This document shows, one piece after another, positions 1,009 through 15,467 of a DNA stretch of 20,000 nucleotides. Every line of letters starts with the position of its first letter. Within the stretch, counting starts at the first letter, position 1. Origin of the DNA: an uncultured virus (IMG/VR IMGVR_UViG_3300027914_001419). Its lineage: Duplodnaviria; Heunggongvirae; Uroviricota; Caudoviricetes. A model generated the notes under the pieces. That model had not been told where the DNA came from and made no database searches. It was given only the letters and a program-made list of their open reading frames with translations. The position numbers and the translations under genes were made by a program. The stretch is taken from the IMG/VR virus record IMGVR_UViG_3300027914_001419; one strand, written 5' to 3'.

Positions 1009-1929
1009 ACGCTGTTCTCCTTTCGGTTTTTCCGCCGTGGCTGTCCCGCCCGGTACGGATATTGTTCTTCTACTATGCGATGCGCCCAGGTCTTTCATGT
1101 GCGCTATCATCTCGTCAAAACTCTTCATGCCGTCTGCCAGACCCGCTTCAATCGCCTGTCTGCCGGTGAAGATCCGCGCATCGGCGACCTCATCGGCGAC
1201 CTTTTGCCGCTCCATGCCGCGATAGTCGGCCATGGAATCGACAAACGCGCCATACAGATAATCGACCCGTTCCTGCATCTGGCCCCGGTCCTCTTCGGAC
1301 AGCGGCCCGTAGGGATGGCCGACGCCCTTGTATTTCCCGGCGGTAATCAGCGTGGTTTTTTCCCCGCGCTTTTCTTCCTGTTTAGAGATATCCCGGTGCA
1401 TGGCAATGACGCCTATGGAGCCAAGCTCCGTGGCGTTGCTGCCGATGTAGGTGGCTTCCGTGGCCGCTCCCAAAAGCTGGGCCGCGCTGGTCATGTAACC
1501 ATCGGTCCAGGCCATGAGCGGCTTTATCGCCGAGGCGTTGCGGAGAAATTCGGCCGTGTCGAACAACTGGTTGACCGCGCCGCCGGGGGAATCGAAATTG
1601 AGCAGGATAGCGGTCACGGCCGGGTCCTTCAGCGCGCTTTCCACATCGTTGCGGATGGCCGCGTAGGAGGTGGCACCGGAGATCTCCTGAAACATCGTCG
1701 CCCGCGGAATCATCGGTCCCATTACCGGGATGACCGCTACCCCGTCCATAACCGTCGTGGGGAGCCGCGACCCGTCCAGCCGCTTGCCGGTTGACGCCTC
1801 GATGCGGGCGATGTCCTCTGGAGACAACCGCCCGTTACGGGTCAGGTGCGCCTCGTAGATGTCCCACATCAACGTCAGGGTCTCGCCCCGGATAGCCCAG
1901 GGGCTCTGTAAAATCGTCAGTACACTCAT
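607..1929 (-). CDS. S49-family prohead protease / capsid assembly protein (lambda gpC-like)
   Basis: Motifs FDSPGG, MTSAAQ, GSIGV, TAGKYK and ARIFTGRQAIEAGLADG. Follows the portal gene with an ATGA overlap. Confidence 0.92.
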   Translation of the reverse strand: MSVLTILQSPWAIRGETLTLMWDIYEAHLTRNGRLSPEDIARIEASTGKRLDGSRLPTTVMDGVAVIPVMGPMIPRATMFQEISGATSYAAIRNDVESALKDPAVTAILLNFDSPGGAVNQLFDTAEFLRNASAIKPLMAWTDGYMTSAAQLLGAATEATYIGSNATELGSIGVIAMHRDISKQEEKRGEKTTLITAGKYKGVGHPYGPLSEEDRGQMQERVDYLYGAFVDSMADYRGMERQKVADEVADARIFTGRQAIEAGLADGMKSFDEMIAHMKDLGASHSRRTISVPGGTATAEKPKGEQRMTREDLQQQHPALYAEIFEEGKQAGIAEGRTAGANDERARVMSILDIPGPSAKAHRDIIMDGVKNGLSAGDTALALQRKEAEVLAKAADDIQTGATQAAPVVDASMDAASEKVKEAACGDAMARAAEDWVKRN

Positions 1930-3596
1930 TCCGCCTCCGGAAGATCGGGGTTCTGGACAGGGGCTTCCTTTACGGCGGCCGGGGTTTCCGTCTTCGCGCC
2001 CGCCGGGGGTATCCCTTGTGTTGCCCGCATCTTCTCTTCCTTGCCCCGCTGTACGATGTTGGTTTCCCAGTCGCCGCCGTTCATGGCCGCTGTTTCCTGG
2101 GATAGCGTCGTGATGCCGAGGGCCGAGCGCCGTTCCGCCGCCTCCACCTCGTCCACCGGGTTAATAATCGGTTTGGACGGGCCGGTCCATTCGTGCCCCA
2201 TCCACGCCGCACGAATCATCGGATCGCTGAAAAAGCCGGGGGCGTAGATAGTGCCCTGGGCCACTTCCTGGGCCAGCCACACGGCAAAGACAGGGTCGCA
2301 ATGGTCTTCGACCAGTTCGGCCCGCATGCACAGGAAGAAACGCCAGGCGTCCTCCATGGCGGCCCGCGCCGCGCTGTAGCTGGCGGTATAGTGCTTTATC
2401 ACTACCTCATACGGGATGCCGATACGCAGCCCGATCTGGCGCACGCACGCGAGAAAGAACGGGTCGAAATTGGCGTTGGGCAGGTTCGGGTCCGCTGTCT
2501 GTATCTCTTGGTCTCTCCCCAGGCCGACCACCGCGCCGTAACCCAGGCGGATATTGCCGGTCGTGGCCGCGCTCTCGCCTGCTCCGGTCTGAACCGTCAT
2601 GCCCGGCAGCCGCCGCACCGCCGGGGCCAGCGGCGTATTGTCCAGACTCTGGCCGGTGCTCTTGATGAACACGGTAAAGAGCGCCGACACCACGGCCCGC
2701 TTCAGTTCGGCCTTGGTCATACGCGCCATGTCCTTGAGGGGCTCCAGCACTCCGGCCAGCATGGGAATGCCCCGCGTCTGGCTCGGCCGTTCGGGCCGGT
2801 AGTAGTGGAGCACGTTCCGCAGGCCGGTTTTGCTGTTGAAGGCCGGGTACGGGTCCCATACCATCCGGTCGGGGTCGGCATAGAGCACATTGCCGGGATG
2901 GCCGCGAGTGAGCCAATAGCGCACCGGCGCGCCGTCTTCGTCTTTCTCCACGCCGCCGGTAAAGCCCCGGCGGTCGGGCTGTTTGTTGGGGTTGCACAGC
3001 CGGTCGGCCTCTATCGCCTGCATCCGGAGGGGGTTGGTCAGGCCCGGCAGTGGTTTGACCGGCAGAAGGGTGATGGCCTCGCCATTGATGATGCGGGACC
3101 GGAGGGCAAGCTGGGCATGGCCGTTAAAAGACAGGGTCCGCTCGATGTCGCAATCCTTTGAGCCTGCCCACAGCTTCCAGCGGCGCTCGAGGTTGCGTTG
3201 CCAGGCGTCGGCTTCCGGGTCGGACAGGCCCAACAGTTCGCGGTCGATGTGGCTTTGCAGGGTGAGCCCGACGCCGACGGTATTCATGATGGTGGTGTTG
3301 ACAATGCCGCCCGCCACCGGCTGGTTGCGCACTGCGTCACGCGAACGGGAGCGCATGTCGTCCAGACCGGCCAGGGATGAATCGGCATCGGAGGGAAATG
3401 GGGTCCATTCGCCCATCTCGCGGCCAGCTCGATCCGCGCCGTCATACCCGCCGCCGGAGGAAAAGGCTTCCGACACCAGGGACATCTGGGCGCGGGCCTG
3501 CATCCGTTGCGAGGCCCGGACCGGCGCGAAATACTCCACGATCCTGTCGATGAAGTTTCCCGCTATCAATTTTTCAACTGCGCGGTCTTTCAGCAT
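1926..3596 (-). CDS. Phage portal protein, lambda family
   Basis: 556 aa. Motifs RSRDAVRN, VGVGL, IEADRL, GGVEKDEDGAPVRYW, RPSQTRGIP, YSAARAA and INPVDE. Lies between the gpW-like and S49 genes. Confidence 0.95.
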   Translation of the reverse strand: MLKDRAVEKLIAGNFIDRIVEYFAPVRASQRMQARAQMSLVSEAFSSGGGYDGADRAGREMGEWTPFPSDADSSLAGLDDMRSRSRDAVRNQPVAGGIVNTTIMNTVGVGLTLQSHIDRELLGLSDPEADAWQRNLERRWKLWAGSKDCDIERTLSFNGHAQLALRSRIINGEAITLLPVKPLPGLTNPLRMQAIEADRLCNPNKQPDRRGFTGGVEKDEDGAPVRYWLTRGHPGNVLYADPDRMVWDPYPAFNSKTGLRNVLHYYRPERPSQTRGIPMLAGVLEPLKDMARMTKAELKRAVVSALFTVFIKSTGQSLDNTPLAPAVRRLPGMTVQTGAGESAATTGNIRLGYGAVVGLGRDQEIQTADPNLPNANFDPFFLACVRQIGLRIGIPYEVVIKHYTASYSAARAAMEDAWRFFLCMRAELVEDHCDPVFAVWLAQEVAQGTIYAPGFFSDPMIRAAWMGHEWTGPSKPIINPVDEVEAAERRSALGITTLSQETAAMNGGDWETNIVQRGKEEKMRATQGIPPAGAKTETPAAVKEAPVQNPDLPEAE

Positions 3597-4189: not shown

Positions 4190-4417
4190 TTACGCCTTTT
4201 CCGGCTTTATCTCGATGATGAATGTTTCGTTGAAATAGTTTGCAAGTAGTTGAATTGTGTCAATGGTGGGGTGCCCGATTCCCTTCATGTACCGGCTAAC
4301 CGCCGATTGAGTCAGTCCGATTTCTCTTGCGATAGCTGATTGACTGGACTTGGCAACGGCTTCACGAATCAAAATAACTATTCTTTCCGGTGTTTTTGAA
4401 TTGCCTCTACCCTTCAT
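4190..4417 (-). CDS. Small XRE/Cro-C1-type HTH protein (paralog 4)
   Basis: SQSAIAREIGLTQSAVSRYMKGIGHP HTH; ends TFIIEIKP; ATGA overlap with the upstream paralog. Confidence 0.85.
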   Translation of the reverse strand: MKGRGNSKTPERIVILIREAVAKSSQSAIAREIGLTQSAVSRYMKGIGHPTIDTIQLLANYFNETFIIEIKPEKA

Positions 4418-4665
4418 AAAACCCCCACAATATCGCCAGATTGCGGCTTGATTTGAATATCAAATGTTTTGCCGGTATAGTCTGAGAGGCGCTGAAGCGT
4501 GGTAAACGTTGGCTCCCCAATTCCATCACGATAGCGGGCGAGTGAAGCCATACCGATCCCTGTTGCATTGGATAATGCCAAAAGTCTACTTTTCGTCAAA
4601 AGCTCTTTAACCAGGTCAATCACCCAAACTGGTGTTTTTCCTGTGCCTCTTCCTCTTGGGCTCAT
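4414..4665 (-). CDS. Small XRE/Cro-C1-type HTH protein (paralog 3)
   Basis: GKTP...LSNATGIGMASLARYRDGIGEPTFTTLQRLSDYTGKTFDIQIKP; ATGA overlap with the upstream paralog. Confidence 0.85.
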   Translation of the reverse strand: MSPRGRGTGKTPVWVIDLVKELLTKSRLLALSNATGIGMASLARYRDGIGEPTFTTLQRLSDYTGKTFDIQIKPQSGDIVGVL

Positions 4666-4877
4666 AGATCCTCCGGTTTAATCTCAATGGTGAAAGTGGT
4701 TTTGAAATAGTTTGCCAACTTTTGAAGACTGGCATATGTCGGCTCGGTTGCTCCTGCGAGATATTTGTCCACGCTGTTCGGGTTAATTCCTGATTTTTTG
4801 CAAAATTGGTTCAGGCTTATCTTCTCAGGAATTTCTGAATTGAGTAGGTCAACAACTCTTTGGAATGTTTTTCCCAT
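4662..4877 (-). CDS. Small XRE/Cro-C1-type HTH protein (paralog 2)
   Basis: SLNQFCKKSGINPNSVDKYLAGATEPTYASLQKLANYFKTTFTIEIKP; GGGGGA RBS. Confidence 0.85.
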   Translation of the reverse strand: MGKTFQRVVDLLNSEIPEKISLNQFCKKSGINPNSVDKYLAGATEPTYASLQKLANYFKTTFTIEIKPEDL

Positions 4878-4909
4878 AATTCCCCCTGCTCTATCTAAAG
4901 GCTGAAAAG

Positions 4910-5407
4910 CTAATCCTGTTGCCCGGACGGTTTAATCTCTATAATAAATGTACGCCCAGTATAATCAGCTAGTCGCTGTATACTAGAGAGACGGGGTTCA
5001 CCTATGCCCTTCAAATATCGCTGTATACTCAAAAGAGTTAATCCAGACTCTCTGGCCACAGCGCTTTGGCCCTTTTCTGCGACTAATTCCGTCAGCAACT
5101 CAACCAACCATTCAGGTGTTTTTCCCAGTATGATTTCCTGAGATTTATTTGATGTAATCAGCTCCATTTCAGTTATAGCCATAACTGATATCTCAAGATA
5201 TTCGGCAATCTTTGTGACAAAAGCCTCTGTCAACCTCTGTTTTCCAGTTAATAATCTACCAACGTAAGACGATGAGAAACCGGAACTGGCTCCGATTTCA
5301 GCAAATAATCCGTAAGTCCCCCATTCTCCCCTCTTAGTAAGTTCTTCGATTATTCGCTGTAATACAAATGTCTGATTTTCTTTTAAGAACATTGCTATCG
5401 TTTGCAT
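4910..5407 (-). CDS. Double-HTH XRE-type protein (paralog 1), 165 aa
   Basis: Likely start ATG 5407 (MQTIAMF) after GGGGAGGG. N-terminal HTH IGASSGFSSSYVGRLLTGKQRL; C-terminal HTH GQSAVARESGLTLLSIQRYLKGIGEP...TFIIEIKP. Confidence 0.8.
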   Translation of the reverse strand: MQTIAMFLKENQTFVLQRIIEELTKRGEWGTYGLFAEIGASSGFSSSYVGRLLTGKQRLTEAFVTKIAEYLEISVMAITEMELITSNKSQEIILGKTPEWLVELLTELVAEKGQSAVARESGLTLLSIQRYLKGIGEPRLSSIQRLADYTGRTFIIEIKPSGQQD

Positions 5408-5516
5408 TATCCCTCCCCACTGCTTAATCTTCGTTTCGATTCCCTGGCATCTACCCAAATTGGCCGTGCGCAGGTGCCCCGGCTGCCAGCGAAACGATAG
5501 ACGGCGGCCGCAGCGA

Positions 5517-5879
5517 CTACTCCGCCCACCGCGCCGGGTCAATCTCGTACTCACGGCGGAAGACCTCCACCGATACGGCGGTTATCCTGATGCCCTGAGA
5601 GGGCCGCAAGCCGTTTTCGCCCTCTTTCGCGCCGTCATCAACCGCTATCAGCTTGCCCTCTTTTACCCGGCCCAGTGCCCACTTGCCGCTTTTTCCGAAG
5701 ATAGCCCCGGCCTCGTCGGGCGAATAGCAGAGGTTTTCCAGGATATGCCGCTTCTTTACCTCGGAAATGTCCGCCATTGTCACCCTCAGCCGTGGCATAT
5801 CCTTGTTCTGTTCGATCCGTATCGCTTCCTTTTCCGTCACGCACCACCCCGTTTCCCGCCTTGCGGCGTCAGATTCCAT
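5517..5879 (-). CDS. Xis/MerR-like winged-HTH DNA-binding protein, possibly a late-gene regulator
   Basis: YSPDEAGAIFGKSGKWALGRVKEGKLIAV resembles an HTH_17-type domain. Overlaps the terL stop; exact start uncertain. Confidence 0.55.
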   Translation of the reverse strand: MESDAARRETGWCVTEKEAIRIEQNKDMPRLRVTMADISEVKKRHILENLCYSPDEAGAIFGKSGKWALGRVKEGKLIAVDDGAKEGENGLRPSQGIRITAVSVEVFRREYEIDPARWAE

Positions 5880-7782
5880 TACTCAGCATTTGCGCCGCGC
5901 CGCCTGACTGATCCATCAGGTTTTCCCGCCGCGCATTATGAAAATTGCTCACATTCGCCAGCACCAGCGCCATTACCTCGCAGTCCCAGAGGTGATTCGC
6001 CCTGTTGTTCGGGTTCTGCCACAGCCCGCCCGAGTCTCTCCCTTCGGCGCAGCAGTGCCGGGCGTACTCCTCCAGGCTGTTCCGCTGGTCAACAGCGGCT
6101 CCAGACGCTTTCAGCTTCCATTGCTCCGTGGTGAATCCGCTGTGCAGAAGCCACGCGCCGGGGTCCGATGGCTCCACCATCAGCCTCAGCGCCAATTCGT
6201 CCTTGAATTTGTGGGTATTAAAGGTATGCAGCCGCACCACGCCCGGTAAAGGCTTGTTGGTGCCTGGGAAATTGGCGATGGATGAGACGCTCACCAGTTT
6301 GGTAGGGTTTCCGGAGGCCCCTTGCGCCGGGATGACTCCGGTTTTGAGGCACCACAGGTATATCTCGGTGGTCCGGTGCCCCTGGGTGTCGATAATCGCC
6401 CACGTAACCACATGCTCCGTCCCCTTCGCATCGTACCAGTTCCCGTACAGGAGCCGCTCCACCCCTGCCAGGTCCGTGACGTACCCTGCCTTTACCAGCC
6501 AGGAGGAGAGGACCTCCCCGAACCGCCAGGCCCGGACCGTATACCAGAACCCCTTGTCCTGGGTGTCAATGTGCATGGTCAGGGCATCTATGCCATGGGG
6601 CACAAGGCCGTCCGGCCGGGTGTCGCACAGCCGGAGGATGTAGTCTTCCTGCCGTTCGCTGATTTCAGGAATGTAGTCTATGGCTTCGTAGCCGTTGGCC
6701 CAGGCGGTTTTGGCGTTGAGGTCGCCGGTTTTGGCCTTGAGCCAGGCGGCGGCTATTTCGGTGAGGGGGATGTCGAGGCATTCCCAGGCCCGGTGGTGGA
6801 AGCCGACCTTTGAGGGGCGGGGTATGTCGGCGCCTTTGACGCAGTACCAGCGGCCATGGCGGATGGCGTGTTCGCGTTTGCGGTCGTCCCATACTGCGCC
6901 ACAGTTGCAGGCATATTCGACGCCGGTCTGTTCGATGGTTTCGGGGGTGGCGTCGTTCGGTATGATGAGGTGTTCGGCGTCCATGCGGACGAGTTCGCCG
7001 CAGTCGGGGCATTTGAGCCGGTATTCCCATGTCTGGTGACAGTTGAGCATGCCCTTGTAAACGAATTTCCCGGCGGGGGTGCTGGCGAAGAAGCGTTTGT
7101 AGCGGCCTTTGTAGGTACGGTTGCGCTTTTTTATGAGGGTTATGGGGTCGGCTTCCTTGCCGGCCATTTCCGGGTATTTGTCTATTTCGTCGCCAAAGCA
7201 GTGCTTGGCGCTCCAGGTGGCCATGCTGGTGGCGCTGTTGGCGTGGGCCGGAAAGATGGTGACGCCGTGTTGCAGGTTGATGCGGGCCAGGCTGGTGTCG
7301 TCCATTTTGCGCGAGAGGTAGCGGGAGAGCCGGGGCGATTTCTGCAGGGTGGGCTTGAGCTTGCCTCCGGTGATTTTAGTGGCGGCGTCTTCTGTTGGCA
7401 TGAGATAAAAAATGTTGCCGGGATCGCAGTCTATGGCCCAGCCGATGCAGTTGAGCATGGTGTTGGTTTTGCCGCTCTGCTCGATGCCACAGAACCAGAC
7501 TTCGCGGACCCAGGGCTGACCGAAGGTGTCCATGATCTTGACGGTGTGCGGGGCGTAGTCGTGCCGCCAGGGGCCTTCGTGGGCGCCGTCGGTGACGATG
7601 CGGTATTTTTCGGCCCATTCGGAAACCTTTATCTTTTCCGGGTGGCGCATGCGCAGGCGCACGGGCCGCGGGATGGCGAAGGAGACCGGGCGGCCCCGGA
7701 GGGTTTGCCGGACTTGTTCGGGCAGCCATTCGGGCAGGCCAAAGCGGGTGGTGAAGCTGATATGAAGGGCTGGCTGGTTCAT
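5869..7782 (-). CDS. terL: Terminase large subunit, lambda GpA family, 637 aa
   Basis: True start is ATG 7782 (MNQPALH), with an ATGA overlap with the upstream gene. Motifs: SEWAEKYR, EQSGKT (Walker A), CFGDEIDKYP (Walker B), ASTP, CPDCG..CNCG, IDTQD and NHLWDCEV (nuclease). Confidence 0.95.
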   Translation of the reverse strand: MNQPALHISFTTRFGLPEWLPEQVRQTLRGRPVSFAIPRPVRLRMRHPEKIKVSEWAEKYRIVTDGAHEGPWRHDYAPHTVKIMDTFGQPWVREVWFCGIEQSGKTNTMLNCIGWAIDCDPGNIFYLMPTEDAATKITGGKLKPTLQKSPRLSRYLSRKMDDTSLARINLQHGVTIFPAHANSATSMATWSAKHCFGDEIDKYPEMAGKEADPITLIKKRNRTYKGRYKRFFASTPAGKFVYKGMLNCHQTWEYRLKCPDCGELVRMDAEHLIIPNDATPETIEQTGVEYACNCGAVWDDRKREHAIRHGRWYCVKGADIPRPSKVGFHHRAWECLDIPLTEIAAAWLKAKTGDLNAKTAWANGYEAIDYIPEISERQEDYILRLCDTRPDGLVPHGIDALTMHIDTQDKGFWYTVRAWRFGEVLSSWLVKAGYVTDLAGVERLLYGNWYDAKGTEHVVTWAIIDTQGHRTTEIYLWCLKTGVIPAQGASGNPTKLVSVSSIANFPGTNKPLPGVVRLHTFNTHKFKDELALRLMVEPSDPGAWLLHSGFTTEQWKLKASGAAVDQRNSLEEYARHCCAEGRDSGGLWQNPNNRANHLWDCEVMALVLANVSNFHNARRENLMDQSGGAAQMLSNGI

Positions 7783-8756
7783 GCGGCGTCCTCTTGATGG
7801 TCTTCGAACATGCCTTCTATTCGTCCGGCGGCCAGGGTGTCGTTGAAGGCCTTGGCGAGGATTTCTTCCATGCCTTCGTAGACTTCCGGGGCTCTTGTGG
7901 GGTCTCCGCCGGAGAGGTGGATGATGTGGGCGGACCCGATGTGGAGCTGGTGGCGGATGGTGTCGCGCAGGGATCCGACGAGGGCGGCGAGTTGCGCCCA
8001 GGCTTCGTCGCGGTGGAGCCATTTGGCGTTTTGTTCGCGCTGGAGGTCTTCGGCCTGGATTTCGGCTTTTTTGGCGTCGGCGATGGCTTTGCGGGTGTCG
8101 GCTTCTTCGCGCTGGCCTGCGAGGTCCACGGGAGAGGCGGACCGCCGTTCTACGTCGAGCTGCTGGCCGTATTGGAGGACCTGGAAGCGGGAGACGGTTC
8201 CGTCTTTGTGGACGGAGGGAAAGCCTGCTTCGCAGTCGTTGTAGAATTTGCCGCGGCTGATTTTGTAGCCCTGGGACTGAAGCCAATTGTGGGCCTGGAT
8301 GCGGTTTTTGAAGCGTTCGCCTTCGGGGGCAGGGGCTTCTTCGGGGAAGTAGGCCTGCCAGAGACGGTCGATGGTTTCTTCGTATAGTTCGCGGGCGGCG
8401 TCGAGGTTCGCTTTAGTTTCTTTGCCGGGGTGGTTTTTGAAGGCGAGCATGGTGGCGTCGCGGCCGTCGCGGACCATGGACAGTTCGTCTTTGTCGTTGT
8501 CGGGGACGATTTCGAGCAGCTTTTTGAGCTTGTCGCCTTTGTAGACGATATTTCCGGCTTTTTTGCCTGCGTTGCAGCTCTTGCAGGCGGTTTTGAGGTT
8601 GGAGATTTCGTTTTTGCCGCCTTTTGATACGGGGGTGACGTGATCTATTTCCAGTTCGGCTTCGGTGGCGGATTTGCCGCAATACTGGCAGGTGTAGCCG
8701 TCGCGCCGGAAGACTTCGAAGCGTAGTTTGTCGTTGATTTTTGTCCGATCCGCCAT
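7779..8756 (-). CDS. HNH endonuclease fused to a probable terminase small subunit
   Basis: N-terminal RFEVFRRDGYTCQYCG...IDHVTPVSKGG.NEISNLKTACKSCNAGK is a clear HNH domain. C-terminal REEADTRKAIADAKKAEIQAEDLQRE..WLHRDEA resembles the Nu1-type coiled coil. Translationally coupled to terL. Confidence 0.7.
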   Translation of the reverse strand: MADRTKINDKLRFEVFRRDGYTCQYCGKSATEAELEIDHVTPVSKGGKNEISNLKTACKSCNAGKKAGNIVYKGDKLKKLLEIVPDNDKDELSMVRDGRDATMLAFKNHPGKETKANLDAARELYEETIDRLWQAYFPEEAPAPEGERFKNRIQAHNWLQSQGYKISRGKFYNDCEAGFPSVHKDGTVSRFQVLQYGQQLDVERRSASPVDLAGQREEADTRKAIADAKKAEIQAEDLQREQNAKWLHRDEAWAQLAALVGSLRDTIRHQLHIGSAHIIHLSGGDPTRAPEVYEGMEEILAKAFNDTLAAGRIEGMFEDHQEDAA

Positions 8757-8777
8757 TATGCCCTCGTTGTTTTCTTT

Positions 8778-9062
8778 CTATTTGTCGAACAATTCGAGTT
8801 GGATTTTTGCTGGCTCAACAATGACCAGGCCCCAGCTTTCGATTGTTTCCATGGTTGCCCGCCTGTCGTGGTCCCGGCTCTGCCATGACCAGCGGCCGGG
8901 AGAGTCCATTGTGTAGAGCTGGAGAACGTATTGCCTGACCGGCCAGGACGACTCCATCCAGGGTCCGAATTGCGTCACCGTTTCTACCTCCCGGACCCGT
9001 AAGCGGACCCTGGGGTCTGCTGGCGGCGGCGGTTGCAGTATGTCTCCTGGGTAGAGTTGCAT
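8778..9062 (-). CDS. Hypothetical protein, 94 aa
   Basis: ATG 9062 (MQLYPGDIL) after AAAGGAGA; ends QLELFDK. Confidence 0.65.
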   Translation of the reverse strand: MQLYPGDILQPPPPADPRVRLRVREVETVTQFGPWMESSWPVRQYVLQLYTMDSPGRWSWQSRDHDRRATMETIESWGLVIVEPAKIQLELFDK

Positions 9063-9116
9063 TTGGGTTCTCCTTTGGCTGGCATGGCATAAATGTTCCG
9101 AATGGGATGTTGAGCA

Positions 9117-9140
9117 GCGCGTCACCCGCGGCTCCCGTTA
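9117..9140. repeat. Truncated third copy (one 24-nt arm) of the 115-bp palindromic element
   Basis: gcgcgtcacccgcggctcccgtta is identical to the right end of the copies ending at 9695 and 10714. Includes the stop codon of CDS 9138-9515. Confidence 0.9.
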
Positions 9141-9515
9141 AACCGTCTTTGCAAACTCGCGCAGGGTACGGGCAATAAACCAGCCGGTGCCGCATCCGGC
9201 GGAAAATTCTTGCGGCTGATGTGTTTCGGCAATTTCCGCCGCTTTCAACAGCCCATTCCGCAGCCCACGGATGTATAAATCAGCCTCATTCATTCCGATC
9301 CCGCTGCCGTCCTCCAACTGGAGATATTGCGCGGATATATCACCTATTGTGTCGCTCGCAATCCGTGCGGGGCCACGTTTTGTAGAAATGCACATGTTGC
9401 ATTCTTCCCCGTTGGGATTGCTGGCACCCATATCAAAACCAATTTTGCAATAACCCAAGATGGCTACAGGAACACCGTTTTTCTGCAATTCTTTTGATGC
9501 TTCATCCCAAGTCAT
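9138..9515 (-). CDS. Hypothetical cassette-borne protein, 125 aa
   Basis: ATG 9515 (MTWDEASKEL) after AAAGGA. Bounded on the coding strand by GTTAAACC (9539-9532) and its exact complement GGTTTAAC (9144-9137), which contains the TAA stop. Confidence 0.7.
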   Translation of the reverse strand: MTWDEASKELQKNGVPVAILGYCKIGFDMGASNPNGEECNMCISTKRGPARIASDTIGDISAQYLQLEDGSGIGMNEADLYIRGLRNGLLKAAEIAETHQPQEFSAGCGTGWFIARTLREFAKTV

Positions 9516-9536
9516 AAGTTTTCCTTTCGCTGGTTT

Positions 9537-9579
9537 AACCACCGCTACCAGCCGTTTCCGGCTGAAGCGGAGGCCCGTT
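9537..9579 (-). mobile_element. Short attC-like recombination hairpin
   Basis: Minus strand: AAC-GGGCCT-CCGCTTCAGCCG-GAAA-CGGCTGGTAGCGG-TG-GTT(AAAC). An imperfect bulged stem between AAC and a GTTRRRY core. Confidence 0.6.
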
Positions 9580-9691
9580 CACGCGACTGCGTCGCGTGAA
9601 CGGGAGCCGCGGGTGACGCGCCGATGAAGCAACTTGCGCGTGAACACGCGGGTAGAAGCGCACGCTTGGCGGCGCGTCACCCGCGGCTCCC
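9577..9691. repeat. 115-bp gene-less palindromic element, copy 1
   Basis: Hairpin gttcacgcgac-tgc-gtcgcgtgaac, followed by a perfect 25-bp inverted repeat (9599-9623 / 9670-9694). Differs from copy 2 at two positions (9631/10650 and 9640/10659). Confidence 0.95.
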
Positions 9692-9703
9692 GTTATCCGT
9701 GAA

Positions 9704-9886
9704 TTACCACGGAAGATGTTTTTCGCACCACACGTAAAATCTTTCTCCTAGTTTTTCTAGGGCCACATCGAAGTGATCCGACAAGGAATCTCCACTTTTG
9801 CCTGGCAAGTGGCAAATTAGTTTCAGCGCGAAATAAATTACTATTCCGTAAATGAACCAAAAAATTAAAGGTAGTATTGCTTCCAT
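9704..9886 (-). CDS. Small cassette-borne membrane protein, 60 aa
   Basis: ATG 9886; MEAILPLIFWFIYGIVIYFALKLICHL is a hydrophobic helix. AT-rich. Bounded by GTTATCCGT (9927-9919) and its exact complement ACGGATAAC (9700-9692). Confidence 0.65.
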   Translation of the reverse strand: MEAILPLIFWFIYGIVIYFALKLICHLPGKSGDSLSDHFDVALEKLGERFYVWCEKHLPW

Positions 9887-9924
9887 AATTAGTACCCTTT
9901 CCCGCTGGTCCACTGATAACGGAT

Positions 9925-9968
9925 AACCAGCACTATGCACCCGCCAGAGCGGGTAATGCTTGATCCTT
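9925..9968 (-). mobile_element. Short degenerate attC-like hairpin
   Basis: Minus strand: (T)AAG-GATCA-AGCATTACCCGC-TCTG-GCGGGTGCATAGTGCT-G-GTT(ATCC). Starts at the HTH stop codon; AAG replaces AAC. Confidence 0.5.
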
Positions 9969-10146
9969 ATGATGCTTGATTCGACTTCTTCCAGAGTTCG
10001 AGCCAGGAAAAAGCAATTCCCGGCACCCTCCGCTTTCCGCCCTCCCAGTCCTGCCAGGTCCGGTAAGGGGTATTGCTGTATTCGGCTGCTTGCTTCATGG
10101 AGAGGCCCGCCGCCTTCCGGGCCTCTCGAAGCTGTTCGGCTGTCAT
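9967..10146 (-). CDS. XRE-family HTH protein, 59 aa (below the ORF-track cutoff)
   Basis: Translated by eye: MTAEQLREARKAAGLSMKQAAEYSNTPYRTWQDWEGGKRRVPGIAFSWLELWKKSNQAS. ATGA overlap with the upstream gene. Confidence 0.88.
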   Translation of the reverse strand: MTAEQLREARKAAGLSMKQAAEYSNTPYRTWQDWEGGKRRVPGIAFSWLELWKKSNQAS

Positions 10147-10364
10147 GCTTCGACCAAATAAAACGAGCCATCTGTTTTGGTCGGGACCAAGTACTCCTTG
10201 CCGAGGTCAGACACATACACCATGCATCGCTCACCTGCCACCCAAACAACATTCCCCTGTCGGTATTTCGGAGTGACGGTACTCAGTCCATCATGGTCAG
10301 GCTCACCCAGCAAACTGCACAATGGATACTGTTCCCCGGTTTCTCTTTCATATGCTCTAATCAT
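10143..10364 (-). CDS. Hypothetical protein, about 73 aa, first gene of a two-gene operon with the HTH
   Basis: AGGGAGG RBS followed by ATG 10364 (or 10370), MIRAYERETGEQYP...; lies downstream of a consensus promoter. Confidence 0.75.
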   Translation of the reverse strand: MIRAYERETGEQYPLCSLLGEPDHDGLSTVTPKYRQGNVVWVAGERCMVYVSDLGKEYLVPTKTDGSFYLVEA

Positions 10365-10404
10365 CGTCATTGCCTCCCTTGGTTTGTTGTTCATCTTGAT
10401 TCCT

Positions 10405-10456
10405 ATTATACACGCATTGCGTATGCTGTCAACAATAAAAATGTGCATTGCGTGTA
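10405..10456 (-). promoter_or_regulatory. Consensus sigma70 promoter with operator-like palindromes
   Basis: TTGACA (10432-10427), 16-nt spacer, TATAAT (10410-10405). The spacer contains the dyad ACGCA-A-TGCGT, and a related site TACACGCAATGCACAT lies at 10456-10441. Confidence 0.85.
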
Positions 10457-10485
10457 TTTTTTTACCAAAGGGAGGCAAGCATCAA

Positions 10486-10598
10486 AACAAAACATTCGAC
10501 CGGCCCCCAGAACACCGCCTCTCTGACTGTCTCACTGAATATTGCGGCATCTCTGTTTCGTCCCCACCCACGCTGAAGGCCGGTCAATTCAAACCGTT
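10486..10598 (-). mobile_element. attC-like recombination hairpin (about 113 nt)
   Basis: Minus strand: AAC-GGTTTGA-ATTGACCGGCCTTCAG ... CTGGGGGCCGGTC-G-AAT-GTTTT-GTT. Paired arms at 10573-10585 and 10498-10510, with a single extrahelical G and an unpaired spacer next to the AAC/GTT cores. Confidence 0.65.
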
Positions 10599-10710
10599 CA
10601 CGCGACTGCGTCGCGTGAACGGGAGCCGCGGGTGACGCGCCGATGAAGCGACTTGCGCATGAACACGCGGGTAGAAGCGCACGCTTGGCGGCGCGTCACC
10701 CGCGGCTCCC
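10596..10710. repeat. 115-bp gene-less palindromic element, copy 2
   Basis: Direct repeat of 9577-9691 at an offset of 1019 bp with 2 substitutions. Abuts the TAA stop of CDS 10712-11065. Confidence 0.95.
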
Positions 10711-10711
10711 G

Positions 10712-11065
10712 TTATCTGTATTCCTCGATAGTGCCCTTAACGATCTTGTAGTTGATCGCCTGAGACTCCCCCTTGATTTCAACAGTTCCGAGACCAGGCA
10801 TCCCTTGAGTGATGGTAATAGCGGTGCCCGGCTCTCCCGGACCCTTAGCGAAATGGATTCGGATTTCCTCCATGCTGTCGATTACGATGTCCATTTGTCT
10901 CTCCGAGTACGACTCGCTCATCACCGCACGCATTGCTTCCCGCATCCGCTCCAGGTTGCCCGGCAGAGTGTAATATTCCAGAGCCGACCCAGCCGCCCGA
11001 AGAACCGAATCAAGCGCCGTATCTACATTTTTATTGCCGTCAATTTTGGTATCAGATTGGTTCAT
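10712..11065 (-). CDS. Hypothetical protein, 117 aa
   Basis: ATG 11065 (MNQSDTKID) after GGAGG. The stop TAA is part of a TAAC core. An internal RBS-ATG (GGAGAG...MDIVIDSMEE) suggests a possible fusion of two genes. Confidence 0.65.
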   Translation of the reverse strand: MNQSDTKIDGNKNVDTALDSVLRAAGSALEYYTLPGNLERMREAMRAVMSESYSERQMDIVIDSMEEIRIHFAKGPGEPGTAITITQGMPGLGTVEIKGESQAINYKIVKGTIEEYR

Positions 11066-11211
11066 CGTCTTTCCTCCGTGCGTCCACCACGCACACCAAG
11101 CACAGCCACACCCACTTGCTGCCTGTCCAATGCGCGATAAATGCACTCGTGCAGTCGCCCTGACAGGCCTCCTTGCCGCACTCATGGCACCTGTCGGCGC
11201 AGGCTGGTCCG

Positions 11212-11511
11212 TTACCCATTGCTGCTATCCCACACCGAACCGCGTAGCATCCGCGCCATCAACAGGTCAGGATTGCATCGGCGAACCGTCTTCACTACAG
11301 GCGCAGACTCCACGGGCAGCGGCATTTCGACCCTTTTCGGGCGGCCCTGTTTCGCCTCCTTGCGGCGTTGCTTTTCCTGCGTCGTTTTTTGCTGCCGATA
11401 GCATTTGCTGTCGCAGTACATCCGCATGGCGAACTTTGCCCAAGTTTCGTCCGGCCTCATAACCAGCGGTTTTCTGCAATTTTCGTTCTTGCACAGCCTG
11501 GCCTTATTCAT
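11212..11511 (-). CDS. Hypothetical Cys-rich basic protein (possible Zn finger)
   Basis: CKNENC...YCDSKC; GAGGAG RBS. Confidence 0.65.
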   Translation of the reverse strand: MNKARLCKNENCRKPLVMRPDETWAKFAMRMYCDSKCYRQQKTTQEKQRRKEAKQGRPKRVEMPLPVESAPVVKTVRRCNPDLLMARMLRGSVWDSSNG

Positions 11512-11535
11512 GGTTGCTCTCCTCTATTACCTTTT

Positions 11536-11811
11536 TCAGCAGGCGGCCTCCACCCTGGCCGCTCCGAGCAGGGCGTAACCGGCTATGTCCCGGTAGGGGG
11601 ATTCGCCGAGGGCGTCGCGGTCGGTGGCGATACGGAACAGTTTGTCTATGATTCGGACTACACACAGGGCGTCACTCATTTGTTCTGGGGCTATGCCGTC
11701 CGGGTAGAGGATCCGCATTACCTGCCCGGCCTGGCCGAAGCTGTCGCCGTAGGCGAGTTGTTTTTCTTCTACGATTGCACCTATCTCCTGGGCGAGTTGC
11801 ACGTATTTCAC
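11536..11811 (-). CDS. DUF1599 / nucleotide-modification-associated-domain-like protein
   Basis: GTG start (GTGA overlap, AAAGGAG RBS). Motif KQLAYGDSF...RIIDKLFRI...ESPYRDIAGYALL. Confidence 0.65.
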   Translation of the reverse strand: MKYVQLAQEIGAIVEEKQLAYGDSFGQAGQVMRILYPDGIAPEQMSDALCVVRIIDKLFRIATDRDALGESPYRDIAGYALLGAARVEAAC

Positions 11812-12002
11812 TTTTTCTCCCTTTCGTTCCACCATTGGCGGGCGTGTTCGCGGATTGCTCCTGTCGGCCCTTCGCAGTAGCAGTCGCGGCAGCAGATGAA
11901 GTATTCAATGGCGTTGTCTATGCCGATTTCGTCCATGTACAGGCTGGTCCCGCCGCAGAACGGGCAGGGCTTCAGGCCGGTTTCGTCGGGAATTATCATC
12001 AT
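11808..12002 (-). CDS. Lar-family restriction alleviation-like Zn-finger protein
   Basis: LKPCPFCGG...CRDC...GP...ARQWWNER. Confidence 0.8.
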   Translation of the reverse strand: MMIIPDETGLKPCPFCGGTSLYMDEIGIDNAIEYFICCRDCYCEGPTGAIREHARQWWNEREKK

Positions 12003-12532
12003 GCCGCCTCCGCCCGGATGAACCGGCCGTCTTTGCCCCTGAGCCGCTTGGGGACGGGTTTTGCGTACAGTTTATCGACGTGCTCGCCGAGGGCGTTGAA
12101 CATTCGCTTTGCTTTGGGGATGTTTATGCCCCTGCTTTGCCTGGCTATGGCGTCAAGAAGTTTGTCGAGGGATTTAAGCGCGGCGGCGGCCCGGTTGTGC
12201 TGGTGCGAGTTTATGGGCGCGAGGCGGGTCACTTCGTCCACCAGGGCGACGGCGTAGGCAGCGCGGTATTCGTGCAGGTTGCCGGTGAGGCCCGCTTCTT
12301 TGGCCGCTGCCGGGAGCATGTCGGAGATCCGCCCGGCGTTTATGCTGTCTTCGTAACCGGAGCCGGAGGGCATTACGGAGTCCAGGAGGCGGTTGGCGGC
12401 GTGTTCGACGGATTCGGCCCGGTTCCATTGTTCGCTGAGGCGGCGGACGTTGCGCTTTATTTCGTCGGCGGCGGCCAGGGCGTAGGATATGCCGAAGACG
12501 GCGAAGGACAGGGTTGCTTTGGTTGGTTGCAT
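11999..12532 (-). CDS. Hypothetical phage protein
   Basis: AAGGAG RBS; ATGA coupling to the next gene; C-terminal RGKDGRF motif. Confidence 0.65.
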   Translation of the reverse strand: MQPTKATLSFAVFGISYALAAADEIKRNVRRLSEQWNRAESVEHAANRLLDSVMPSGSGYEDSINAGRISDMLPAAAKEAGLTGNLHEYRAAYAVALVDEVTRLAPINSHQHNRAAAALKSLDKLLDAIARQSRGINIPKAKRMFNALGEHVDKLYAKPVPKRLRGKDGRFIRAEAA

Positions 12533-12544
12533 GTTGGTTTCTCC

Positions 12545-12931
12545 TTAGAACAGTCCGGCCTGGACGGATGGTTTTTGCACCTCCGGCAGATCTCCGGTCT
12601 GTGTGTGGGATTCGATAACTGAACCCGGGAAGGCGGCGGATACTTCCGGAAGCAGGCTGATAACTTCGGAAAGCAGGCCGGGTTTCTTTGCTCGCAGTAT
12701 TTCGATGGCCTGGGCAAATGTGACGGCTCTGCCTTTTTTTCCCATTCTGTTCATCCAGTAGGCGGTTCCGCAGAAGTAACAGGGCTTGTCTTCGATGATG
12801 AATTCGGCGACTATTTCGCGGCCTTCGGATTCGGTGAAGAATTGTTCCAGAGTTTTGCCCGCTATGGCGGAGAGCCTGAGATTGTCCCAGTTTTCGCCTT
12901 TTTTTTCTTTCATGGACCAGGTGATTTCCAT
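12545..12931 (-). CDS. Hypothetical phage protein
   Basis: GAGGG RBS; fills the gap downstream of the helicase in the operon. Confidence 0.65.
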   Translation of the reverse strand: MEITWSMKEKKGENWDNLRLSAIAGKTLEQFFTESEGREIVAEFIIEDKPCYFCGTAYWMNRMGKKGRAVTFAQAIEILRAKKPGLLSEVISLLPEVSAAFPGSVIESHTQTGDLPEVQKPSVQAGLF

Positions 12932-12938
12932 TTGTCCC

Positions 12939-14312
12939 TCAGTACGGATCGTTTTCCGCCGGGGCCTGCGTGTACCTCCCGCGGATTCGGGATTGCTTTC
13001 CTTCCGTATATTTGGCGGCTACGGAGTCATATGGGGTGAACCCTTTGAACTGGAGAAACGCCGGGTTCATGTCTACGGTGAATTTGAGTCCGGCTTCTCC
13101 GTTGGTGTTTTTAAGGACGGAACAGATGATGTTTTTGTCTTTGTCGCGCCAGAGACCGATCATGAAACGGGCATACTGCTCGATGGCCCCGGATCCTTTG
13201 CCCGCTTCCATGGTCATTTCAGCGCCTTGCTGAAGCCCGGCCTGGGGCCTTTTGGTGTGAGCCAGGACGATGACCGGCACATCAAGGCGTTTGGCCATGT
13301 TCATGATGGCCGGGGCGTTGGTTTCGATGAGCTCGAACAGGCCGGACGCTCCGGGCGCAGTGGTGAGCCCCAGAAGATCTATGCCGATGGCGCCGATTTC
13401 CCCGTATTTGCGGCGGGCAAGCCGGGTGTAGTGCTCGATCTGGTCGATTGTGAGCCCGCCATGGTCGCAGATGAGCAGCCGATCTACCCCTTTGGATGAG
13501 AGGGCGGAGAGTACGTTTTCGCGGTAGCCCTGATGGTGATGAAAGCCGCTCTCGATGTTGTAGGTGAAATGGCCCATGCCAATTTGCACGGTGCGCTCGA
13601 ACATGCGGATGTCGGACATTTCGAGGGAGAAGTAGGGATACCATTTGTCTGTCCGGCCGCAGGCGCCGATGAAGATGTTTTGCAGCAGGGCGCTTTTGAA
13701 GAGGCCGGGGCCGCCGAGAATGTACATGACTTCCTTCGGGCCAACCCCTCTGATGACGCTGTCGATTTCCGGAAAGCCGGTGGTGAAGCGCAGTTTTTCG
13801 ATGGTGCGGACGTAGTGCTGGTACTTGTCCGCCAGGGCGTTGATGGTCTGGAACGGGTCGGTGGAGACATGGCCGGAGGTGACGTTTTCGAGCCGGTTGA
13901 TTCCGCTGGAGATGATTTCGTCCAGGTCAGCGTTTTCGTCACAGGCGGCTGTGGCGATTGCCCGAGCCGCTTCTATGGTGTTGCGGGCCAGTGATGATTT
14001 GCGTACCCGGCCGCTGTAATAGGCGATGTTTGCGGAGGTGGGAACGTAGTCAATCAGTTCCGCCAGGTACTGAGCTCCTCCGGCTCTGGAAAGGGAGCCG
14101 TCCGCCTTGAGCTGTCCGGTAACCGTGATGAGGTCTACCGGGCGGTCGGTGGCGCGTAACAGCCGGACGGCGTCGAATATCAGGCGGTGGCGCTCTTCGA
14201 AGAAATCCCCGGCGGTTAGCTGTTCCGAGGCGGTGTCACAGGCTTCAGGGTCCAGGAGAATCGCGCCGATGACGGCCATTTCGGAGTCTATGTCTTGGGG
14301 TTGCTTTCTCAT
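12939..14312 (-). CDS. DnaB-like replicative helicase (divergent motifs)
   Basis: DnaB N-terminal domain PQDIDSEMAVIGAILLD...DFFEERHRLIFDA...VDLITV..L...GGAQYLAEL...PTSANIAYY. C-terminal TGFPEIDSVIRG, FSLEMS and GSGAIEQ. Start probably ATG 14312. Confidence 0.88.
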   Translation of the reverse strand: MRKQPQDIDSEMAVIGAILLDPEACDTASEQLTAGDFFEERHRLIFDAVRLLRATDRPVDLITVTGQLKADGSLSRAGGAQYLAELIDYVPTSANIAYYSGRVRKSSLARNTIEAARAIATAACDENADLDEIISSGINRLENVTSGHVSTDPFQTINALADKYQHYVRTIEKLRFTTGFPEIDSVIRGVGPKEVMYILGGPGLFKSALLQNIFIGACGRTDKWYPYFSLEMSDIRMFERTVQIGMGHFTYNIESGFHHHQGYRENVLSALSSKGVDRLLICDHGGLTIDQIEHYTRLARRKYGEIGAIGIDLLGLTTAPGASGLFELIETNAPAIMNMAKRLDVPVIVLAHTKRPQAGLQQGAEMTMEAGKGSGAIEQYARFMIGLWRDKDKNIICSVLKNTNGEAGLKFTVDMNPAFLQFKGFTPYDSVAAKYTEGKQSRIRGRYTQAPAENDPY

Positions 14313-14319
14313 CCGGTCC

Positions 14320-14607
14320 TCAGAATGGGCATTTGCCGTCGCTTGACGGGGCTTCGCCGTCAAGCAGGGCTATGGCCTGCCGGCGTATTTCGGATTTCAG
14401 GGCTTCATCGGTTATGTTGACGTGTTTTTTCCAGGCATCATTGCCGTCGCGGCCGGTGAATTTTTCGGCCGGTTCGCTGATCCAGGTTTCGCCGTTGTCT
14501 TTGCGGCACAGCGTAATACCGCGGACGATGAGCGGCTGGAATTGAACGTCGAAGGCGGCAACCAGAATTCCCGCTGTTTCAATTTTGCGAAAGTTTACGA
14601 TTTTCAT
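14320..14607 (-). CDS. SpoVG-like nucleic-acid-binding protein
   Basis: LVAAFDVQF..LIVRGITL...GETWISEP.EK...DG...WK..V pattern; located in the replication module. Confidence 0.6.
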   Translation of the reverse strand: MKIVNFRKIETAGILVAAFDVQFQPLIVRGITLCRKDNGETWISEPAEKFTGRDGNDAWKKHVNITDEALKSEIRRQAIALLDGEAPSSDGKCPF

Positions 14608-15379
14608 CAGTCCTCCAAGGGGTGAAGTCTCTCAATCTCTGGCCGTAGTCGGGTAGTATGCCGAGGTCGTAACAGGTGTCTTCGATGGCGGTGTTGCATT
14701 TGCCGCCAAAATCGTTGATGCAGCGGACAAGGCCTTCGATGGTGGGTGATCCGCGAGGGAACCGGCGTTCGTCGGGTATGGTGAGGTAGACACAGGCTCT
14801 GGAGATGAGCTCTTCGAGGTCGATGTTTTTGAGGAGCTTGGCGATCATGGCATAGTGCCGGTCCAAGGCCACGAATGCGGACTTTGTTATCCGGCCATAG
14901 GCGTGCTGCCACCAAGCGACGAAGTATTGATGGTCGGAGGGCGCGCTTTTTGGTGGCGCGCTCCCTTTAGGGATATTGGTTCTTTTGGGTTCAAGGGGTG
15001 ACATTTTGTCATTAATTGATGACATTTTGTCATTAATCGGTGTGTCTGGGCCGGGAATTAATGACATTTTGTCATGATTTTTTGACGGCTCCGGCTGAAT
15101 TAATGACATTTTGTCATTAATTTTTAGCTGATATATGTTGGATCGATAGGATCCGTTTTCCCTGGTCCGCGGTTTGTTTACCAGAAAACCCCTCTGTTCC
15201 AGTTTTACTATGCCCCGGATTACGGTTCTGACGCTATCGCCGCACTTCTTCGCAAGCACTTCCCTGCTGGGCCAGCATACGCCTTCGTCATTGGCGCTAT
15301 CTGCCAGAGCCAGCAACAGCATTTTTTCCGATTTTGGAAGGTCCATCATCCAGACGATAGACATCAGTTTGATGCTCAT
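14579..15379 (-). CDS. Phage replication initiator with N-terminal winged HTH, 266 aa
   Basis: ATG 15379 after GAGGA. MSIKLMSIVW...EKMLLLALADSANDEGVCWPSREVLAKKCG.SVRTVIR.IVKLEQRGFL. Contains internal iterons and lies upstream of the helicase. Confidence 0.85.
   Translation of the reverse strand: MSIKLMSIVWMMDLPKSEKMLLLALADSANDEGVCWPSREVLAKKCGDSVRTVIRGIVKLEQRGFLVNKPRTRENGSYRSNIYQLKINDKMSLIQPEPSKNHDKMSLIPGPDTPINDKMSSINDKMSPLEPKRTNIPKGSAPPKSAPSDHQYFVAWWQHAYGRITKSAFVALDRHYAMIAKLLKNIDLEELISRACVYLTIPDERRFPRGSPTIEGLVRCINDFGGKCNTAIEDTCYDLGILPDYGQRLRDFTPWRTDENRKLSQN
14999..15122. repeat. Probable phage replication origin: four palindromic iterons
   Basis: TGACATTTTGTCA starts at 14999, 15020, 15062 and 15104 (spacings 21, 42 and 42 bp), flanked by ATTAAT/AATTAA, inside the initiator gene. 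Confidence 0.85.
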
Positions 15380-15467
15380 TATTTCCTCATGGTTCCGGCC
15401 CCGGATTACGCGATAAAAAATCTGATGCGCAGGCGGGGAATTACACCCCGCCTGAATCATTGCCGGA

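Follow-up and report, generated by a model that had tools for sequence, protein, structure and literature searches.

The window, that is, the whole stretch of 20,000 nt analysed here, has all of its plausible genes on the minus strand. Several of them match PHROG families (Table 1) and, judged from its sequence, the window is a lambdoid-type tailed phage or prophage of the Geobacter type. Two further records represent the same phage: a metagenome contig (L060) is 100% identical to positions 7106-10372, and a 4.4-kb viral record is identical to positions 10682-15125. Both records break inside the repeat described below. A 29-nt repeat with a palindromic core occurs four times within the replication-initiator gene (14992-15125), with spacings of 21 and 42 nt, and probably represents the iterons of the origin. 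A run of paralogous small HTH regulator genes (4190-5554) lies between the terminase and the head-tail adaptor gene and displays 55-nt DNA repeats every ~240 nt.

Table 1. Features of the window and of the cassette array that it contains (G^TT, crossover point)
Feature	Position	Strand	Description
Portal	1926-3596	minus	PHROG match
Head protease and head-tail adaptor		minus	PHROG matches
Large terminase	5869-8286	minus	PHROG match
Truncated unit	9114-9137	plus	3' arm only; head of the array; ends with the G of G^TT
Cassette A	9138-9577	plus	Starts TTAAAC; inverse core GTTTAAC at 9535-9541; short attC hairpin; final G at 9577
Cassette A gene, 125 aa	9138-9515	minus	ORF with RBS
Mini-cassette (unit) copy 1	9578-9692	plus	115 nt between G^TT cuts
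Cassette B	9693-9966	plus	Starts TTATCC; inverse core GGATAAC at 9921-9927; attC hairpin
Cassette B gene, 60 aa	9704-9886	minus	Membrane-type protein from translation; ATG at 9886
Region C	9967-10596	plus	Cassette status uncertain
HTH gene, 59 aa	9967-10146	minus	Weak Aca2/YdiL-like match
73-aa gene	10143-10364	minus	Region C; no family
Sigma-70-type promoter	10432-10405	minus	Perfect TTGACA-16-TATAAT, between operator-like palindromes
attC-like hairpin	10482-10596		Region C; ends in G before copy 2
Mini-cassette (unit) copy 2	10597-10711	plus	115 nt between G^TT cuts; tail of the array
Phage gene, 157 aa	10712-11185	minus	No family; stop TAA overlaps the TTA after the last crossover
DnaB-type helicase	12939-14363	minus	PHROG match
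Replication initiator	14579-15460	minus	PHROG match
HNH endonuclease		minus	PHROG match

Positions 9114-10711 constitute an array that reads, in plus-strand order, truncated unit, cassette A, unit copy 1, cassette B, region C and unit copy 2, and is followed by phage DNA. The array is a CALIN (an integrase-less cassette array), is plus-oriented and runs opposite to phage transcription. CALINs comprise at least two attC sites without an integrase nearby; here, cassettes A and B and both units contribute attC sites, and a tblastn search of the 20-kb window detected no integron integrase. Cassettes A and B both have a core and an inverse core that are complementary at all seven positions, as well as a hairpin fold, and the 3' crossover of cassette B is degenerate (C, not G, at 9966). 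The protein encoded by cassette A has a few real homologues, with no match in 87 genomes of the family or in viral contigs.

The junction of region C with cassette B is degenerate. The promoter and 73-aa gene of region C recur with 82% DNA identity in a phage contig in which the unit finds no match, a recurrence indicating that region C may be native phage DNA. The 73-aa protein recurs together with the promoter in a viral contig (L217), with 88% protein identity and a different downstream gene. Positions 9967-10470 form a self-contained two-gene module, the layout of which resembles that of an anti-defence (acr-aca) or a toxin-antitoxin operon. At the other end of copy 2, the crossover G^TT (between 10711 and 10712) adjoins phage DNA, and a search of the 9287 nt downstream revealed no inverse core to match GTTATCT. 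The GTT at the stop codon of the 157-aa phage gene is likely the original secondary GTT target; used as a query, this gene matched itself only.

A repeat search delimited the two full copies as part of a direct repeat of 126 nt (9575-9700 and 10594-10719; 98% identity, spacing 1019). In agreement with an earlier note made from these letters, the 115-nt copies are two substitutions apart and are accompanied by a 24-nt remnant, and each copy lies between the end of a minus-strand gene and a different short hairpin, with G^TT on both sides. Positions 9114-9140, which include the remnant, agree with the 3' arm of each full copy in 26 of 27 nt (23 nt exactly), and the cassette that follows the remnant begins at the TT at 9138. 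The note placed the gene end beside copy 1 in the GATAAC at 9693; this gene most likely ends at 9704 instead. Removal of the units restores ordinary cassette junctions, as had been proposed.

Copy 1 consists of an R' half (TTCACG), an 11-nt filler, an inverse core (CGTGAAC), a fully paired attC stem that encloses a conserved asymmetric centre, and a final G. The first 25 nt of the unit form an 11-3-11 palindrome, which in the searched genomes never occurs apart from the unit or a fragment of it, and the large hairpin has perfect 25-bp arms (9599-9623 with 9670-9694, and 10618-10642 with 10689-10713). The centre contains a third copy of the box CGCGTGAAC. The RNA fold energy of the unit is -90 kcal/mol, the z-scores are -7.8 (minus-strand RNA) and -7.1 (plus-strand DNA), and none of 200 shuffled sequences folds as well. 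The search of Rfam returned no family at the gathering score, and E-value mode gave only sub-threshold hairpin matches to miRNA models.

In circular form, the unit corresponds to one attC site. The core GTTCACG pairs with the inverse core CGTGAAC within the same cassette, as is expected of an attC, and the pairing runs on into a perfectly paired stem of 19-22 bp that closes the asymmetric centre of ~46 nt. Eleven further nucleotides lengthen the core/inverse-core pairing, so the unit amounts to a 104-nt attC plus 11 nt. The stem is perfect over 29 bp in the circular form, and the folds of the top and bottom strands differ by no more than ~3 kcal/mol; the unit therefore has neither extrahelical bases nor a central bubble. 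The absence of extrahelical bases was already remarked upon in the earlier note; this absence and that of the unpaired central spacer, both features that characterize attC sites, are borne out by the alignment and the folds. The four bases after GTT also deviate from the RRRY consensus of the GTTRRRY core type.

The pairing is maintained across species. Nine of ten aligned copies have the seven-out-of-seven pair GTTCACG/CGTGAAC, and the copy from genome G007 has the compensated pair GTTCGCG/CGCGAAC. The consensus fold comprises 39 base pairs, five of which show compensatory changes, including the core/inverse-core pair in G007; three of the compensatory pairs occupy the positions of the unpaired spacer of an ordinary attC. 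Among diverged copies, the stems covary, and the 25-nt palindrome and a central block of ~30 nt are nearly invariant.

The closest copies beyond the window were found in an uncultured Geobacter MAG by an exact-arm scan followed by a whole-genome search, which yielded five full copies (98-99% identity) and two fragments, with flanks unrelated to those in the window. Diverged copies (76-82% identity) were detected by BLAST in seven of 87 genomes of the family, and a covariance model built on ten copies also matched seven, the union being eight of 87. Each unit-bearing genome has one to five copies. At the order level, the covariance model matched four of the 151 genomes sampled, three of them already known and one a new weak match. 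The low copy number and restricted occurrence characterize a lineage-restricted low-copy family, not a REP-like repeat.

Searches of viral sequences with the unit returned solely the 4.4-kb record mentioned above, and those of the INPHARED phages gave no match. A metagenome scan with an 18-mer of the arm was unspecific, with the unit present in one of 120 reported stretches (L060). Read depth was inspected in contigs of four metagenome runs: in runs X1 and X4, the unit reaches 5-50 times the depth of its flanks and has several different flanks, and the other two runs barely cover the unit. A 21-nt match to the arm in a contig of a Planctomycetales MAG was regarded as chance. Similarly, a 20/22 match to unit positions 10-31 inside the portal gene (3331-3352) has no hairpin partner nearby and is probably a chance occurrence in GC-rich DNA.

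Partial forms of the unit were also observed. In contig C5 of the MAG (L041 7769-7802), part of a DUF1016-like reading frame is replaced, in frame, by the first 34 nt of the unit. This fragment may be an old insertion at a non-attC GTT that later underwent a deletion, and its junction recurs as a loose end in one metagenome run. In contig C48 (L040 2821-2857), the conserved centre (37 nt) is found within the attC region of an ordinary gene cassette, with 97% identity to the window copy and 100% to the MAG's own copies, which suggests an exchange between attC sites or a deletion derivative. In contig C18 of genome G069 (L179 31-145), a variant that follows attI lacks both the small palindrome and the beginning of the left arm, and is a natural deletion form.

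The placement of the unit bears on its identity. The earlier note described a gene-less cassette that starts and ends at G^TT and occupies attC-like sites, a description that is supported here and extends to attI, and named random non-GTT sites and a lack of empty-site alleles as observations against it. All 13 full copies inspected (window, 2; G002, 5; G083, 2; G069, 2; G082, 1; G007, 1) are bounded by G^TT on both ends and come after either an ordinary attC or an integron attI-type sequence. Contig C44 of the MAG is particularly clear in this respect. The unit alternates there with two low-GC canonical sense cassettes, the genes of which lie on the same strand, each with its own short hairpin behind it. 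In each gene cassette, the first 7 nt and the inverse core complement each other exactly (GTTGTAC/GTACAAC and GTTAGAT/ATCTAAC); the inverse core, a 7-mer ending in AAC, is found 5 nt ahead of the hairpin, which in turn stops 8 nt short of the next G^TT. This match at the first 7 nt places the unit exactly at cassette junctions, and the unit bears the same signature, as it starts with TTCACG and contains CGTGAAC. Overall, full complementarity of core and inverse core (7/7) was found at seven of the 14 junctions examined, including both testable junctions of the window. Most of the seven misses are followed by a short stretch of sequence (52 to ~1,500 nt); copy 2 of the window differs from them in being followed by phage DNA.

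As expected of an attC-bearing cassette, the unit also occurs in arrays that adjoin attI and an integron integrase. In genome G069 it occupies the first cassette position, and intI starts ~245 bp away; in contig C7 of G082 it comes after an attI that has a truncated intI alongside; in the G083 integron it is located ~6.7 kb into the array. The decisive comparison is that of attI: a region with 95-98% identity over ~695 nt carries the unit in G082 C7 and G069 and two different gene cassettes in G083 C4 and G082 C8, and the similarity ends at G^TT. The same attI thus exists with and without the unit, and provides the equivalent of the empty site that the earlier note called for. An integrase scoring above the TIGR02249 cut-off is encoded by seven of the eight unit-bearing genomes, compared with 39 of the 87 genomes of the family overall; of the genomes other than the MAG that carry diverged copies, all five tested encode one. 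The MAG with the closest copies has no integrase above the cut-off, and neither a circular form nor an excision product of the unit was seen.

The orientation of the window's array follows from the attC sites of cassettes A and B. Both the arrangement of the spacers (5 nt behind the AAC box and 8-9 nt ahead of GTT) and, in a hand alignment, the side carrying the extra bases place these sites on the plus strand, implying that the array is plus-oriented. This polarity is common to the attC sites of A and B, the units, and the canonical sense cassettes of the Geobacter MAG. The proposals of the earlier note that the unit was inserted in reverse orientation at the inverse core, and that it had lost the usual orientation constraint, do not hold. 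The units share the polarity of sites A and B, the genes being antisense instead, and the asymmetric centre of every copy has the same polarity relative to its array. Since the unit is palindromic except for a 3-nt loop and the 46-nt centre, a copy inserted the other way round would be recognizable by its reversed centre; no such reversal relative to attI or the neighbouring attC is seen in any of the 13 full copies, and polarity is thus kept. The centre, as the sole asymmetry available to the unit, presumably sets this polarity.

The array genes of the window (minus strand; 9138-9515, 9704-9886 and 9967-10364) run antisense with respect to the attC sites, in the direction of phage transcription. 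The antisense cassette genes are the mirror image of normal cassettes, which is unusual. An origin as canonical cassettes inverted by top-strand recombination was considered and rejected, because such an inversion would also flip the hairpins, which the hand alignment shows unflipped. The direct repeats had further been suggested to delete the intervening 1019-bp segment by homologous recombination, and no joint of this kind was found in contigs of the four metagenome runs. The same runs contain a joint from 9115 to 11121 with just 27 letters on its shorter side, and a joint that goes back from 10714 to 9573.

Taken together, the G^TT borders, the attC and attI contexts, the alternative occupants of attI, the junction complementarity and the covarying stems identify the unit as a gene-less integron cassette. 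We consider it probable that it is a minimal cassette that is moved by the integron integrases (IntI) of the Geobacter family and persists mainly as hitch-hiking selfish DNA. Recognition and movement by IntI would be in line with the alternative occupants of attI, the metagenome contexts and the co-occurrence with IntI, all of which are observations at the sequence level. Several points run counter to this interpretation: the unit has no unpaired spacer or extrahelical bases, the features that shape strand choice in tested attC sites; the integrase searches of the window and of the MAG, the antisense cassette genes and the lack of any circular form or excision product also weigh against it; and the near-invariant centre and small palindrome suggest a sequence-specific role that a purely selfish reading leaves unexplained.

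The last of these points gives some weight to an alternative in which the unit is the same integron cassette but is kept for a function, either as a portable docking site for the seeding and extension of arrays or as a very stable hairpin that protects or insulates the transcripts of the cassettes beside it. The near-invariant 25-nt palindrome and ~30-nt central block with their covarying stems would be accounted for, as would the position of the unit at the head of integrase-less arrays in the MAG, G083 and the phage, and the strong RNA fold (-90 kcal/mol) directly after phage stop codons. Gene-less cassettes with regulatory roles are, moreover, documented in PMC11014356. Against a function, no promoter-like site was found in the unit, no U-tract follows the hairpin except at copy 2, where it is a chance feature of the flank, and the unit is present in just one to five copies per genome in eight of the 87 genomes of the family. 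We regard a retained function as possible, though the less likely state of affairs.

That the unit is the outer part of a compound, species-specific attC of the adjacent gene cassette, comparable to the VCR of Vibrio, is very improbable. Its length (~120 nt) and its recurrence within arrays are similar, but the adjacent cassettes have a complete attC of their own with matching core and inverse core, the same arrays contain unit-free junctions, and the unit is found alone directly after attI. Least credible of all is a REP/MITE-type palindrome moved by a transposase (e.g. Y1/HUH) with a tendency to land near attC: the unit resembles REP/BIME elements and MITEs in being a short, GC-rich, intergenic palindrome located after stop codons, and one 34-nt fragment lies inside the DUF1016-like reading frame of the MAG, but it is low-copy, its two ends do not form inverted repeats, target duplications are absent, a longer parent element was not found in 87 genomes, all full copies have G^TT borders at attC or attI crossovers, and its occurrence is tied to genomes with IntI.

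For the favoured reading of a minimal cassette moved by integron integrases, the following mechanism is proposed. A Geobacter-family IntI would move the unit by G^TT crossover, the target being attI or the R' end of another attC; the unit would thereby come to lie between complete cassettes or first in an array. The unit would persist chiefly as hitch-hiking selfish DNA of the integron system and, as a side effect, would act as a portable attC where further cassettes dock. In the window, the unit would have landed at a plain GTT site, and later cassettes would have been inserted at its attC. The truncated unit at the head of the array and the full unit that abuts the phage stop codon fit this scenario, in which the unit presumably seeded the array.

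A distantly related prophage in contig C43 of the MAG (45-56% protein identity in several genes) has a remnant of a diverged unit, of the G069/G083 type, beside the homologue of the window gene 8778-9061 (L037 ~9650-9693). This remnant has the same relative place as that of the window and is followed by plus-oriented sense cassettes; the presence of a remnant and cassettes at the equivalent place in both phages implies that the locus is a recurrent docking place. The prophage cassettes (L037 9810-11091) are sense and oppose phage transcription. The unit heads integrase-less arrays in the MAG (C44 and C43), in G083 and in the phage, and is often joined to an attI-type fragment of ~30-80 nt. At two unrelated loci, in C44 (L035 18019-18098) and C43 (L037 18445-18524), an 80-nt attI-like piece of identical sequence lies ahead of the unit. 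Because this piece itself begins at G^TT, the attI fragment and the unit together resemble a single composite mobile cassette at the head of integrase-less arrays. About 160 nt upstream of the attI-like head of the C44 array there is a c-di-GMP-I riboswitch (L035 17781-17859), which has a terminator and scores 46.5 bits, more than the gathering score. Going further, we tentatively suggest that the unit, as a fully paired attC that keeps a strict polarity by means of its centre, might be a self-propagating, attC-only cassette that shuttles between Geobacter chromosomes and phages and founds CALINs at plain GTT sites. If so, it would provide a concrete origin for CALINs and a route by which phages could draw on the cassettes of the host.

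The common view holds that integron cassettes serve to carry genes and that unpaired bases are a requirement of attC sites. The unit is a cassette reduced to a perfectly paired attC, which covaries across species and is repeated within arrays, and represents a natural test case for the substrate needs of integron integrases. No description of an attC-only, fully paired, multi-copy cassette was found in the open-access literature searched. The ~99% identity between the copies in the phage and in a host-type chromosome is direct sequence evidence of one shared cassette pool, and the unit is a candidate founder of the integrase-less arrays that are common in Geobacter-family genomes. The finding thus bears on integron mechanics as well as on the exchange of cassettes between phage and host.

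Gene-less promoter cassettes have been described in Vibrionaceae superintegrons (PMC11014356) and in oral Treponema integrons (PMC6557892). Like these, the unit is independent, has its own attC, contains no protein gene and is found between gene cassettes. The promoter cassettes, as presented in those reports, carry a non-coding cargo with measured promoter activity, whereas the unit is essentially an attC only. It further differs from them in that one array holds several near-identical copies, and in its recurrence in different species and in a phage.

Canonical attC sites have the architecture R''-L''...L'-R', with extrahelical bases, an unpaired central spacer and a variable terminal structure (PMC5027507, PMC2727003). 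According to PMC5027507, the extrahelical bases and the unpaired spacer shape strand choice and sometimes efficiency in the tested attC sites; removal of the extrahelical bases lets both strands recombine, and recombination of the top strand inverts the cassette. The unit shares the AAC/GTT core pair, the G^TT crossover, an imperfect overall palindrome and a terminal structure of variable length. By contrast, its stem is fully paired inward from the core boxes, with spacer positions that covary to stay paired, and in place of extrahelical bases its sole asymmetry is the conserved centre.

Integron parts and CALINs have already been reported in phages (PMC9892861). Consistent with these, the array of the window lies within a phage genome and comprises at least four attC-type sites with no integrase in 20 kb. 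Unlike known CALINs, it is headed and ended by a gene-less unit, and its genes run antisense to the attC polarity.
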